From: Octopus vulgaris
Lineage: Eukaryota
Assembly (NCBI GenBank): GCA_951406725.2
Contig: OX597822.1
Location: 14,198,001 to 14,262,000 of the forward strand
Reading direction: 5' to 3'
Length of the DNA: 64,000 nucleotides
The position numbers and the translations under genes are program-made. Positions 39,049-51,168 of the stretch are shown here, piece after piece. Numbering within the stretch: position 1 is the stretch's first letter; the number at the start of each line of letters is the position of its first letter. The notes under the pieces are model-generated. The model ran no database searches. It saw only the letters and a program-made list of their open reading frames with translations, and was not told the DNA's origin.

Positions 39049-39086
39049 TCATCTCTGTGTTTCCCTCCTGTTGCTTGTCACACGTC
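39049..39086 (-). CDS. TMIE: TMIE-like gene, probable last coding exon: (G)RVTSNRRETQR*
   Basis: Strong acceptor ttctattctctttcttgcgtttag|GA; phase 1 matches the donor at 43716; unique sequence. No homology support. Confidence 0.6.
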
Positions 39087-39259
39087 CTAAACGCAAGAAA
39101 GAGAATAGAATTGAATTGTGCAGCAAATAAAAAAATGATGATGACGATGACTTCATTTAATTGGCAATGGGGATTCAGTTTAAATGGACATTACAGTGTC
39201 AGGTTATACATTGCGTTGGTGGGTGGGATTTACATAAAAAGGTGACAAAGAAGAAAAAA

Positions 39260-39513
39260 ATGAAATAAAAATATTCTCAGTAAAGAAACCCACCAATACA
39301 TAGCTGGCATAATCCCACTGATGCGGGTGGACCTCCTTGGGTTGGGTCTGACGAGAAACTTCGAGCGACCAAAGACTATTCTGTCCATGGAGGGCACTTG
39401 CTTTCACCTGTCTGTCGCTTTTGACCTACAGGGTATGCTTAGAGTCGTGCCATCAACTCTAACCGTTTTCGCTACACAAATTGACAGGAGGAGAGCGATT
39501 CGCTCGTTTGTCT
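39260..39513. repeat. Left arm of 254-bp inverted duplication
   Basis: Reverse complement of 40854-41107 with 2 mismatches. Confidence 0.96.
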
Positions 39514-39572
39514 GTGTGTATATTCTTAGAAGAATTCTTACAAAGAAGAAGAATAAATTTAAGAACTATATA

Positions 39573-40083
39573 TCTATATATATAAAACTGTTGTGTGAGT
39601 GTCTGTCCCCTTCGATTTAGATTCCTAACTCCTCCCACATTTTGCGGTGCAGTTTAACCAAATTCGGGTATCTTATAGTCGTGATTAATATCGAGCCCGT
39701 CTGGCTATTAGCGCGCGTCTACGATGAGTCTACGATTTTAAAAATAATTTAACATTTTTTATTCCATTTTAATGCATAATTTTTCGTGTGTCGATGGCGG
39801 CGGAGTTGGCGTCCACGCTCACATCTGCACCTGTTTGCTTATCCCTCGTGAATCTGTGGGGAAGGGAGTGTAAATAAATCAACGTCGTAAAGCGTTGTCA
39901 AGGAGACCAGCGTTCTTTTAGAACAACTACTTCATGGCTTGAAGACACTGAGTCAACGATTTAAAAAAAAAATTACCATCACTTTTTATTCCATTTTTAA
40001 TGCATTTTTTGCTATAACTCTCTAAAAATGCTTATATAGTTATTTCCCTTACAAATCCGAGCAACGCCGGGCGATACTGCTAG
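39573..40083 (+). mobile_element. Non-autonomous Helitron-like element
   Basis: A|TC...CCGAGCAACGCCGGGCGATACTGCTAG|T. Confidence 0.85.
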
Positions 40084-40549
40084 TTTACTACATAAAGATA
40101 TTTTTTATTCATTGGTTGTTGATGAAACATAATCAAAATGTAGAATCAAGTAATCTATGCAAGGAAGTTAAGAAATGTAGAAATAACAGCTAAGTGGTGG
40201 TTTTCAGTCATATGGCATACAGAAATAGACAGGCATAGCAATGACATGAATGGCTCAGAGTTTAGTCAATTAAGAAGCAATATTATTATTATTATTATCA
40301 ATCTCGCCCTTTTTCTTATTGTAAATCGCACACTGGTTATTTTGCTTTAGTCCTTGTTTTTTTTTTTTACTTCTTTTAGTATTCTGCCTTCGTAGTATCT
40401 TCGGTGTCTTTGGCCCTTGTAACCAGCAAAACATAACTGTCACCCTCCCCAACCTCTCTCTCTCTCATGCGTGCGCGCGCGCACACACACACACACACAC
40501 ACACTAAAAGAAAATTCTAGCTTTGTGCCTATACAAAAAGTCATTGATC

Positions 40550-47059: not shown

Positions 47060-48053
47060 TATATATATATATATATAAATGCATTCATATAGACGATATA
47101 GGTATACATACATACATTTTTCTCTGCGCGCGTGCATGTGTGAGTGTGTCACGTGTGTGTGACACACGCACACATACATACACACATATACATACATGTA
47201 AAATAAAAAAGTTAAAGGAGTGGGACAGGCAATATGAAAGCTATATATGATTATAAACATACATACATACATATCCTGTTGTTGATGTTGAAATTCCAAT
47301 GAAGGAACCTTGGATCTAGGTTAGAAACCGGTTCTTTCTCTATTGGTAAGAAATCTTGAAATAAAACTGAATAATGACATACAGACACACATACATATCA
47401 TGCATATATACATACATATATACATGCATACATAGACACACACAAACACAGGCGCACAAACATACACACTCACACAGACACCTGTGTGTGAAGGTGCGTA
47501 GCTTAGTGGCCAGGGTGTTGCACTAATGATCGCAATTCCATGAGTTCGATTCCCAGACCGGGTGGCGCTTTGGGTTCTTGAGCAAAATCCTTCATTTCAC
47601 GTCTCTGCAGTCCACTCAGCTGTCAATGGGACACTACCCTGCGACGGAATAGCTTTCCAATCAGGCGGGATGTTGGTCATGCTCACCTAGCCAGCGGGGT
47701 GGTGTCATTCGAAAGCTCAAAAAAAGACAATGTAAAAGCGCATTGTAACCAGCGATGTATAACAACTTCAGGTAGGCTGGTGGATCACGCGATCACGTGA
47801 TAATATGTATAAGGAACGAGTCAACACACAGATTTTGTAAATAATGGTAACAGTGTTGAAATAATGTTAGTGGACCATAGTGTATAAAACACAAACGTAC
47901 CACCACCACCACCACCACCACCACCACCACCAACAACAACAACAACAACAACAACAACACCACTATTATCTACAACAATAATAATAACCCTTTGAAAAGT
48001 TACCCTGTGATATTGCAGTCAATACCCTCGAGCCATTCCCCACCCCGCCTCAC

Positions 48054-48430
48054 CGAAAATGTCTGATAAATGAAGGGGTCAGGTCATTTGTCGAGGGTCC
48101 GTTTCGTCATATTGGCATTTGTAAGCCGGAAGGTGGAGGATGGCGGCCGGCAGGCGACGGTGTGTGTGCGCGTGTGTGTGCTTGGCTGTTGTAGGTAACG
48201 GGTGGAATAAGGGTGAAACGAGACAGGGCGGGGGTGGACGGGAGTGGGGCGCGGCGGGTTCGGGGATCGTTGAAACGTTGTTCGTGTCGTTGGTGGGATT
48301 AACAGGATGGATAATCTAAAATAGATATATCAAAACAGGAACGGCATAAGCAAATACCGCAGGAAAAGAGGCCGCCGTCAACATCACCAGCCCCACCGTC
48401 GCCGCCGCCGCCGCCGCCGCCGCCGCCGCC
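48054..48430. promoter_or_regulatory. CpG/GC-rich unique island inside a TMIE intron
   Basis: GC box GGGCGG, YY1-like GATGGCGGCC, GGGTCAGGTCA and (CCG)n; contrasts with the AT-rich background. Confidence 0.35.
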
Positions 48431-49762
48431 GCCGCCACCACCACCACCACCACAACAACAACAACAATATGCTCCAGCAGCAACAACAGCAGCAGATACA
48501 ACGAGAGCCCCAGCCACCACAGCAAAACAAGATGCCGCCACCACCACCACCACCGCCACCACTCATCACAACTAACTCAACAATAGCCACAACAACAACA
48601 ACAGCAGCTACAGCAATAACCACTGACAGCAAAACAACAGCAAAATAGGCCGACACAACTATCATCACTCAACAACAACAACTACCACAATGGTTGCAAC
48701 AACCACTGGAGCACCCCCTTTAGTAGAACAAATCGACCCCAAGTCTTATTCTTTGTTAGCCCAGTACTTATTTTATCGGTTTGTTTTGACGAACCACTAA
48801 GTTACGGGGACGTAAACACACCAGCATCGGGTGTCAAGCAATGTTGGGGGGACAAACACACACACACACACACACACACACACACACAGACACACACACA
48901 CATATATATATGTATATATGACGGGCTTCTTTCAGTTTCTGTCTACCAAATCCACTCACAAGGCTTTGGTCGGCCCGAGACTATAGTAGAAGACACTTGC
49001 CCAAGGTGCCACGCATTTGGAACTGAAATAGTAAGTATTAAAATAAAATTGTATGATATGGTGTGATGTATATTAGGATTTGATGAATTGCGTGGGGACT
49101 TCTATCTTTAAATGACATGTATTTCCTTATCGAGAATAATTCAACTTATTTGAATCCCTGTGAGGCTGGAATTTTTATTCCCTAATAAATAATTATTATA
49201 CATATATATATGTATATATATTCATACATACATATATATATATTATTTTATTTATTAGGGAATATATATATATAATTTTTATCCCCGTAAAAACGCATTT
49301 TTCATGCAGAATTTAAGTGAACTGCTCGAAAAAGCATCGCTAGTGTAGAAAATAGGCAAAGTTTCGTGTACAGTATGTGCGCGTGTGTATGTCCATCAAG
49401 ATCTAAGTTTATTAGTCACCAGCGGACCTACAAGTCTAAAGTGTAATTTTGTCTGTGTGCCCAATGTTCTTAATGGTCAGCCGTATAATATTATTGTAAA
49501 TGTTATTTTGAGTGAATGTCCGGAGATTTATAGCTGGGAGATGTTCCATGTGTTTATAAATGTATTTTGTTATATTTATATTCTTGTTATTATTGATGAT
49601 TATATTCAGAAGAAATGTAATTCCCATATTGTAATTAAACATATGTAAAACTGAATTAAGATGCTACCACATATTCCGGTCTTTGTTTAATATGTGTGCG
49701 TGCGTGTGTGTTTGTTAGTGTGTGTGTATTATATATATCTATGTATATATATATTTAATATA

Positions 49763-49990
49763 TTTTAATATTCTCCCAAAGAGTCTGGGGAACTTGCACA
49801 AAGTAGATGTAAGGGTTTTTAAATCAAAGCTGGACCTCTTCCTGTCGAGAGTCCCAGATGAACCTACCTCACGGCAAGAGGTGTAAATGAAGGTAGCTAT
49901 ATCAAAGTCCATGATCCACCAAGTGCCATATTAGAGGAGGCTCTTAGTAATGACAGTGTAGCAAAACGGTGGTGCATCAGCATGGCCGCT
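49763..49990 (+). mobile_element. CR1/L2-group LINE 3' end
   Basis: FNILPKSLGNLHKVDVRVFKSKLDLFLSRVPDEP fits the FNxLP..FKxxLD C-terminal motif. Confidence 0.75.
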
Positions 49991-51017
49991 CCACGTTTTT
50001 GTATTTCATTATTGTTTTTTGTTTTTTATATTCGTGTGGCACCGTCCGTTTTGCTGTCTTTGTGTTCGTATGCATTCGATCCTTCTTCCAGGAAATCTAC
50101 GCTCCTAGCTTAGTTTTTCTAATGCTCGTTGCTTAGTTTTTCCTGGAGGGCTGGCCGTTTCTAGTAATCTCAAGATTAATCAGCCGAAATTACTACGATG
50201 ATCCGGTTCTTGACTGAAGACTGAGGGCTTCGAATGTCCTGTCTGTGTTTGTTGTATCGTCTTCTAAGTTTTTAGCGTTCTTGTCTCAGTTTGTATTTTT
50301 CTACATATTATATATATATATATATATATATATATATATATATATATATATAAATAAATAAAAGGGGCAGGCAACAGGTTGCTTGGCCGCATACCGAAAA
50401 AATTAGAAATGGCAGCCATAGACTGTTTATTTCTATTCTCTACAAATGGGACTCCCCATACGACATATCCATGCAATTCACATATGCAAAACAGAAGGAA
50501 TAAATAACGAAAACAGTTGCTTGCCCCTTTTATTTATATACAATATATATACACTGAACTTCACAGAAGTTCCTACCGTTAATGGTTATATTTACATGCC
50601 GAAATCTACCAGTGAATAATTATTGTTTTTTTAAAAACCATTAAAGAAATTATTTACTCTTATTACATATATATATATATATATAAGTATTTCCCCACCA
50701 CCATTACCACCCATTTATCTCACCAATTGACGACTAGTGTTAGTTTGCTTACGTCCGTGTAATAAAGCGGTTCGACAAAAGAGACTAATAGAATAAGTAC
50801 GAGAATAAAAAATAATCCAGCGTAAACACTGGGGGCGATTTGTTTGAATAAAACGCTTGAGTGCGGTGCCCCAGTTTGGCCGCAGTCCAATGGCAGAAAC
50901 ATATAAGCACATTTAAAAAGACTGACTGGTCCCAGTTCGTCCTCGGCCTGCTCCATCAGAACCGACCCCACGTTAAACAACAACAAACATTCTATGGAAG
51001 TTTCTATGCTTACTTAC

Positions 51018-51168
51018 TGACAATCAAGATTAAGAGAATGGCTAATGCGGCAATATGCCAGATTCTGAGGCCCGCTTCTGGTATGACCACCGACTCGATC
51101 GAAAATTCTGTTGTGGGTGGAACTGTCGTCGATCGGGTTGTGTCAGCCTGTTTGGCAGCATCGAGGGA
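51018..51168 (-). CDS. TMIE: TMIE-like gene, transmembrane exon: SLDAAKQADTTRSTTVPPTTEFSIESVVIPEAGLRIWHIAALAILLILIV(I)
   Basis: Acceptor ctttgttatttctag, donor GTCA|gtaagt, 151 nt, phase 0-1. ESVV..GLRIWHI matches TMIE ETVV..DMRLWHV, followed by a hydrophobic helix. Confidence 0.92.

Follow-up and report, generated by a model that had tools for sequence, protein, structure and literature searches.

A probable TMIE ortholog among repeats of the Octopus vulgaris genome and its possible roles

TMIE is a small membrane protein that is required for mammalian hearing. Does a repeat-bearing locus of Octopus vulgaris encode a homologue of it, and if so, where might such a protein act? To answer this question we analysed a window of 64,000 nt (assembly GCA_951406725.2, contig OX597822.1, positions 14,198,001-14,262,000 of the forward strand), and all positions given here refer to this window.

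Results

Exon structure and splicing

A splice and reading-frame check of the window revealed three minus-strand exons, A, B and C, with canonical splice sites that join in one frame (Table 1). The claim of the initial annotation that two canonical exons, about 7.2 kb apart, splice in phase holds for A and B. Exon A is directly preceded by AG and directly followed by GTAAGT; the RefSeq model XP_036362873.1, whose 3' end is exon C, uses another in-frame acceptor, at 51147. While A, B and C all lie inside the span 39049..51168 originally assigned to the gene, the candidate first coding exon lies outside it.

Table 1. Features of the octopus TMIE locus in window coordinates
Feature	Position	Strand	Description
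RefSeq model's first exon	54775..54906	(-)	Repeat fragment; 40/40 scored matches, 344 genome candidates
Candidate first coding exon	53748..53837	(-)	30 codons, ATG to phase-0 donor; inferred
RefSeq model's second exon	51845..51910	(-)	Repeat fragment; 40/40 scored matches, 1,294 genome candidates
Exon A	51168-51018	(-)	Extracellular stalk rich in Ser/Thr, conserved Arg/Trp, bulk of the transmembrane helix
Intron A-B	43860..51017	(-)	GT-AG, phase 1, 7,158 bases
Exon B	43859-43716	(-)	Remainder of the transmembrane helix, Cys cluster, Arg-x-Pro-Arg elbow, cytosolic helix
Intron B-C	39087..43715	(-)	GT-AG, phase 1, 4,629 bases, many high-copy repeats
Exon C	39086-39049	(-)	Last 12 codons and stop

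Exons A, B and C are spliced. We compared exon B with four sequencing runs and obtained contigs in two of them, X1 and X2, and none in X5 and X13. X1 and X2 come from two studies of two organisms, and our guess is that both are RNA. The X1 contig departs from the genome at exactly 43859, and its next 30 letters are those of positions 51018-51047. At the same point the X2 contig, which stems from a species other than that of the window, also departs (26 of 30 letters like 51018-51047), and its other end enters exon C (25 of 30 letters like 39056-39085, compared by eye). Along the proposed path 51018>43859>39086, the A-B junction is thus present in contigs of both runs and the B-C junction in X2 only. 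Contigs from X3 and X4 cross the same exon boundary uninterrupted into the intron. Exon B shows nine differences from the second species, and all three of the listed ones are synonymous. A first mapping of reads was dominated by high-copy repeats and the junctions were not visible there; sequence words of the gene were nearly absent from 20 of the 24 runs searched.

The 5' end and the public gene models

The candidate first coding exon is also the first exon of the GenBank model CAI9727473.1. It has one match in the genome, i.e. it is single-copy, and it obtained the top donor score in a scan of 13 candidates. Joined from 53748 to 51168, it would give a model of 140 residues. Possibly it encodes a signal peptide, with a moderate hydropathy of 1.8 versus 2.6-3.1 in four relatives. 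Since tblastn with the N-termini of four relatives against the window plus 100 kb upstream gave low-complexity matches only, this exon stays a candidate. The two 5' exons of the RefSeq model were rejected as gene parts because they are repeats; both are probably not part of the TMIE gene.

Both public octopus models are in part wrong. XP_036362873.1 (LOC118765236, O. sinensis) contains the supported A-B-C splice, yet starts with the two repeat-derived exons. CAI9727473.1 (O. vulgaris) contains the single-copy first exon, yet carries a low-complexity insert between exons A and B and runs past the donor of exon B, contrary to the X1 and X2 contigs. Exon B is 100% identical in the two proteins, which carry a precomputed PF16038 tag and are named uncharacterized or hypothetical.

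Membership in the TMIE family

Against the Pfam TMIE profile (PF16038, curated cut-off 27 bits), exon B alone reached 39.5 bits (E 5e-10, profile positions 27-64). Exon A alone stayed below the cut-off with 11.6 bits (E 0.24), matching the adjoining positions 7-25, and the RefSeq protein with the A-B-C splice scored 65.7 bits, so that both exon B and the spliced protein lie above the cut-off. In a sequence search of the PDB, worm TMIE was the best of 12 matches (E 7e-9, 51 columns, 0 gaps). Together with the conserved residues described below, these scores bear out the initial identification of a TMIE homologue.

Exon B is the one PF16038 locus found in the genome, among at least 47 and at least 18 candidates. 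An exhaustive homologue search gave 139 proteins, and word-indexed searches gave the two octopus proteins only. Relatives occur in chiton, snails, bivalves, insects, lampreys, brachiopod and nemertean. A quick tree (127 of 138 rows, with 11 short rows left out) left 61 of 110 inner branches open; octopus, on a short branch, fell in neither the vertebrate nor the insect cluster and had no firm place, and with only 57 columns this tree cannot settle orthology. The best reading is that the gene is an ordinary TMIE ortholog.

It had also been described as hidden and, by implication, as surprising, which was not borne out: RefSeq and GenBank models exist, the Mytilus edulis protein CAG2184988.1 is already named TMIE, and orthologs from worm, fly and annelid have been published, the annelid one (Urechis) in PMC10380512. 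A specialist would not be surprised, because TMIE is expected in any bilaterian and databases already list this one with an uninformative name. Our literature search returned no paper on cephalopod TMIE, and the supplements to PMC9839350 (5 files) and to PMC7535936 (4 files) gave no match for TMIE.

Conserved and changed residues

Alignment revealed that octopus TMIE retains worm R23, W25, C43, C44, R49 and R52, which the available excerpts of PMC9605866 and PMC10895266 describe as channel-contact or palmitoylation sites. Among relatives, the near-invariant columns are a Trp (131 of 131), two Cys (135 and 134 of 137) and two Arg (136 of 137 each), and octopus keeps every one of them. The alignments also confirmed three residue assignments of the initial annotation, namely the conserved juxtamembrane Cys pair, the equivalents of human R81 and R84, and Thr in place of R92. 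Of 136 relatives, just 34 have Arg at this last position, and in worm it is Ile, so Arg92 is not a family-wide feature. The equivalent of human R86 is Val in octopus; a basic residue, Lys or Arg, occupies this position in 134 of 137 relatives. Three arginines, R92 being the third, are reported to bind PIP2 in the part of PMC13370362 that we could consult; with Thr at R92, octopus is without one of the three. We also considered whether the juxtamembrane helix has lost net positive charge and rejected this (7 Lys/Arg versus a median of 7 across 130 relatives). The A-B intron interrupts the counterpart of codon 71 of human TMIE (c.211/212, human intron 2), as had been stated for the phase-1 intron; the human position was placed through published numbering.

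Predicted structure and a Tmc123 partner

The structure model contains helices at residues 95-116 and 125-151, with block pLDDT values of 76-96 across residues 81-150, and the hydropathy profile of residues 61-143 has one peak. Octopus TMIE is accordingly predicted to consist of one transmembrane helix, an elbow linker and a cytosolic helix. A Foldseek search of this model against the PDB gave no match at E 0.001 and three weak unrelated rows, which is uninformative because the model is two helices plus disorder.

Genome search revealed a Tmc123-class exon on another contig of the same genome. It matches an octopus protein that aligns to worm TMC-1 at E 8e-130. LHFPL-family genes are present in the genome as well. 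A complex prediction of the TMIE core (residues 84-150) with the O. bimaculoides Tmc123 model (residues 28-700) scored 0.05 in both runs, and as it was run without alignments and its controls were not folded, this score counts neither for nor against binding. The O. bimaculoides Tmc123 model appears to be without a stretch that worm TMC-1 has.

Discussion

Taken together, the octopus TMIE ortholog, the only copy found, is probably a peripheral auxiliary subunit of a Tmc123 channel, a function transferred from worm and mouse. Going by the worm structures, a signal peptide would place the N-terminus outside, and the Cys pair would carry palmitoylation. The two elbow arginines would touch TM6 and TM8 of TMC and the Arg/Trp pair the TM1-TM2 loop, and TMIE would help to localise the channel and to couple its gating to lipids. 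Its sites of action would be those of Tmc123 expression, probably some mechanosensory cells and possibly muscle.

A narrower version, which we regard as less likely than not, has TMIE-Tmc123 transduce in the hair cells of statocyst and epidermal lines, as in vertebrate ears. Cephalopod hair cells are, however, kinociliary and not stereociliary, which counts against it. In addition, TMIE occurs in chiton, bivalves, brachiopod and nemertean, and its presence therefore says nothing specific on cephalopod organs. In favour of a hair-cell role are the Tmc123 and LHFPL-family genes in the genome, the essential part of TMIE in transduction by mouse and zebrafish hair cells as stated in excerpts of PMC9605866, and the proposal, in the accessible text of PMC9839350, that the epidermal lines of cephalopods are lateral-line analogues. 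The identified sucker mechanoreceptor, however, is NompC (PMC12919962). A statocyst role for octopus TMIE is plausible, and we leave it at that strength because worm TMIE works in muscle too. Alternatively, TMC-TMIE may be mainly non-sensory and set excitability or sense stretch in arm and mantle, either in muscle or in proprioceptive cells; this is possible though doubtful. Body-wall and vulval muscle express worm tmie, and so do OLQ and PHC neurons (PMC12250529), worm TMC-2 is described as muscle-only and as binding TMIE in the portion of PMC10895266 at hand, and ecdysozoan Tmc123 genes serve proprioception and locomotion control (PMC7003098). But the two nematode observations may not hold for molluscs.

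Two further explanations fare worse against the same data. That TMIE acts as auxiliary subunit for nicotinic-type receptors, the chemotactile receptors (CRs) in the suckers among them, is very unlikely. Mammalian TMIE is reported as such a subunit of alpha9alpha10 in excerpts of PMC8256367, and CRs derive from nicotinic receptors (PMC11526382). However, according to the available part of a preprint, CRT1 in HEK293 cells yields currents and a cryo-EM structure (endogenous human factors may contribute), and that part names no chaperone; nor was the preprint among the literature matches for TMIE and octopus. Moreover, CRs comprise up to 26 octopus genes (PMC11526382), whereas one copy of TMIE was found and keeps its TMC-contact residues. 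We give hardly any credence to a decaying or non-functional remnant without a usable first exon. The two public models do differ at the 5' end, one of them using repeats, and a few conserved basic positions are altered, but against a remnant stand the open frame, splice sites of canonical type, contigs spliced in two organisms, synonymous differences in the second species and the retention of all near-invariant residues.

The separately evolved statocyst and epidermal-line hair cells of cephalopods might transduce with a vertebrate-like Tmc123-TMIE core that lacks the basic residues R92 and R86 of the PIP2 site of vertebrates. We regard this as rather unlikely. If true, hair-cell organs would have recruited the vertebrate hearing channel complex on two occasions, and adaptation chemistry would differ between them. 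In our literature search no paper named the channel by which statocyst or epidermal-line hair cells of cephalopods transduce. The corrected model of TMIE, apparently single-copy, and the single Tmc123-class gene offer specific probes for a shared vertebrate transducer, and sharing would bear on deep homology versus convergence of hair-cell mechanotransduction.

Comparison with known systems

The TMIE proteins of Mytilus edulis, Liolophura, Littorina, Mizuhopecten, Lingula and Lineus have the same core, with an identity of about 39-47% where they match, and tails of varying length; we found no functional study of those listed. For C. elegans TMIE, known from the TMC-1 cryo-EM structure (PDB 7USW chain D; 7USX, 7USY, 8TKP), partner and cell type are established, whereas octopus TMIE is known here from sequence. 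The two align without gaps over transmembrane helix, elbow and cytosolic helix, and both are without Arg at the human R92 position (Thr in octopus, Ile in worm). In octopus, however, the Ser/Thr-rich extracellular stalk is longer and the tail is different. From human and mouse TMIE (DFNB6), octopus differs by Thr for R92, Val for R86 and the absence of the long lysine-rich tail, but it shares with them W57, the Cys pair and the equivalents of R81 and R84, and with human intron 2 the codon and phase of the intron.

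Results

The locus is a real, spliced TMIE ortholog, correctly identified in the initial annotation. Its exons had been described as canonical and spliced in phase, and we found three of them (A, B and C), bounded by AG/GT sites, with phase-1 introns of 7,158 (A/B) and 4,629 bases (B/C) and a single reading frame continuous across A, B and C. Against the Pfam TMIE profile (PF16038, cut-off 27), exon B alone scored 39.5 bits (E 5e-10, profile 27-64) and the spliced RefSeq protein 65.7 bits. Exon A matched weakly (11.6 bits, E 0.24) along profile 7-25, which adjoins the stretch of exon B. 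A genome search with PF16038 returned one locus, the present one (47 candidates scored); when the closest non-octopus relative served as the query, 18 candidates yielded exons B and A and a single weak match interrupted by stops. Exon A has two in-frame acceptors at its start, 51147 and 51168, separated by 21 bases, and the two public models differ in which they use. The introns contain interspersed repeats, whose summed contig depth in sequencing run X3 reaches millions.

Features of the TMIE locus and of the surrounding window
Feature	Position	Strand	Remarks
Exon A	51168-51018	minus	AG acceptor, GT donor
Exon B	43859-43716	minus	AG acceptor, GT donor
Exon C	39086-39049	minus	AG acceptor
Candidate first coding exon	53837-53748		single-copy, good phase-0 donor
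RefSeq-model 5' exons	54775-54906 and 51845-51910	minus	repeat fragments
Intron repeats	39551-40081 and 43976-44320		very high-copy, interspersed
Open frames	10292-10813, 22337-22735, 54665-55177; 3438-3926, 52064-53015		by eye, presumably Tc1/mariner transposase and LINE-type remnants

The proposed junctions, 51018>43859>39086, were sought in public sequencing runs, with exon B compared with contigs of four of them (X1, X2, X5 and X13). One X1 contig matches 43791-43859 and then departs from the genome; the 30 unmatched letters printed for it are identical to 51018-51047, where exon A ends. In X2, which comes from a different organism and study, one contig spans the whole of exon B and extends beyond it in both directions; these loose ends resemble exon A in 26 of 30 letters and exon C in 25 of 30 (counted by eye). 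The first junction occurs in contigs of both runs, and both junctions in the X2 contig. This contig differs from exon B at nine positions, and the three listed are all synonymous third positions. X1 and X2 are, at a guess, RNA runs. Contigs of X3 and X4 run across the same exon B boundary into the intron, as expected of genomic DNA, and X5 and X13 had no contig on exon B.

Among 12 matches in a PDB sequence search, the best was C. elegans TMIE of the TMC-1 complex (7USW chain D; E 7e-9 over 51 columns, no gaps; runner-up E 0.13). According to Jeong et al. (PMC9605866), R49 and R52 of worm TMIE bond with TM6 and TM8 of TMC-1, W25 touches the TM1-TM2 loop and C44 carries a palmitoyl group; they equate R49, R52 and W25 with human R81, R84 and W57. 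The TMC-2 structure paper adds R23 and C43 (PMC10895266). Octopus keeps the equivalents of all six, among them the Cys pair and the R81 and R84 positions already reported as conserved. An exhaustive protein search (E up to 0.001) gave 139 proteins, 137 without the two from octopus, and across these relatives the corresponding columns are near invariant. The Thr noted at the human R92 position is present but unremarkable, since this column holds Arg in just 34 of 136 relatives and Ile in the worm. A rarer change is Val, encoded in exon B, at the R86 column, which is Lys or Arg in 134 of 137 relatives and Asn in P0019, the closest unnamed one. R86Q is among the human variants listed in a review (PMC8256367), and PIP2 contacts are reported for mouse R82, R85 and R93 (PMC13370362). 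Despite this Val, the octopus helix holds a normal count of basic residues.

Names were looked up for 20 of the 137 relatives, and 14 had one. They form 13 distinct clusters (counted from tables) from a chiton, six gastropods, a scallop, a mussel, a hoverfly, a lamprey, a brachiopod and a nemertean; the remainder are unnamed assembly proteins. The mussel protein already carries the name TMIE. In the Atlas, the three top-ranked clusters hold chordate, nematode and arthropod TMIE, and a fly ortholog (CG15130, PMC10898740) and an annelid TMIE (PMC10380512) are in print. Because relatives span chordates, nematodes, arthropods, an annelid and molluscs, an octopus copy is expected. The tree is too short to place it exactly.

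The gene had been called hidden, but octopus TMIE is already in databases under an uninformative name. A word-indexed protein search gave two proteins containing exon B at 100% identity, XP_036362873.1 (RefSeq; LOC118765236, O. sinensis, 'uncharacterized') and CAI9727473.1 (GenBank; O. vulgaris, 'hypothetical'); for each, a PF16038 tag is precomputed. The former has the A-B-C splice, and its two 5' exons fall on high-copy repeats (40/40 scored matches each; 344 and 1,294 candidates). The latter begins in the single-copy exon. It places extra low-complexity sequence between A and B and continues past the donor of exon B, and run contigs contradict both features. The 5' ends of the two models disagree (53748-54906, 51845-51910), and neither model is correct along its whole length. 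Since the RefSeq 5' exons are repeats and the GenBank A/B region and donor are contradicted, the best model joins the single-copy exon to A, B and C (140 residues). We infer that exon to be the candidate first coding exon; its hydrophobic run is weaker than those of four relatives (1.8 versus 2.6-3.1), and support from reads or homology was not found.

No further protein-coding gene was evident among the window's long open frames, a scan that short exons would escape. Pfam gave nothing above cut-off for four of the transposon-like frames.

A genome search for possible partners found four TMC-domain loci (41 candidates). That on contig C22 (L002 1501-1686) matches worm TMC-1 (E 5e-15, 59 residues) and an O. 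bimaculoides 'TMC3-like' protein, itself at E 8e-130 against worm TMC-1; because of these matches the gene is, by sequence, of the Tmc123 channel class. The N-terminal half is absent from its public O. vulgaris model (673 aa), and a stretch of worm TMC-1 seems to be missing from the O. bimaculoides one. Three exons on contig C7 (L003, L004, L005), identical at 10-14 of 33 positions to the equivalent C22 exon, are judged to belong to other TMC genes of unspecified subfamily. Four genes are compatible with the gene set of PMC7003098. LHFPL-family exons gave nine matches (150 scored of 3,465 candidates), at family level and not specifically LHFPL5, on C4 (138.99-139.05 Mb, an apparent tandem pair), C9, C19 and C29.

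Discussion

By analogy with worm and mouse, whose TMIE function it would share, octopus TMIE is probably a single-pass, palmitoylated subunit. It would sit peripherally on the Tmc123 dimer and aid localisation of the channel and lipid-coupled gating.

As to the cells concerned, worm tmie expression is reported for sensory neurons as well as for the muscles of body wall and vulva (PMC12250529), and worm TMC-2 is muscle-only (PMC10895266). Action in hair cells is therefore a live but tentative reading, and so is a possible role in muscle or proprioceptive cells; the two are not mutually exclusive. The report on TMIE and alpha9alpha10 (PMC8256367) could suggest a partner of the chemotactile receptors of suckers. 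However, the receptor CRT1 functions in HEK293 cells (bioRxiv 10.1101/2025.10.28.685082), these receptors expanded (PMC11526382) and TMIE did not, and the recorded sucker mechanoreceptor is NompC (PMC12919962), which makes such a partnership very improbable.

A literature search for TMIE with octopus, most subscription journals lying outside its scope, returned only PMC6031363, in whose available text octopus is confined to the reference list. TMIE is absent from the accessible parts of PMC9839350 (including five supplements), PMC8367381 and four supplements of PMC7535936; cephalopod single-cell tables may carry the gene under a LOC identifier. The main use of our results is a corrected TMIE gene model and a probe for force transduction in cephalopod hair cells.

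The human variant c.212-2A>C is listed at the intron 2 acceptor (PMC8256367); therefore base 2 of codon 71 is the first of human exon 3. Mapped through this published numbering and a gap-free alignment, the octopus A/B junction lies in the same codon and phase, in agreement with the c.211/212 position given initially. The AlphaFold model predicts a helix (95-116), a linker and a second helix (125-151), matching the helix-linker-helix layout described for worm TMIE.
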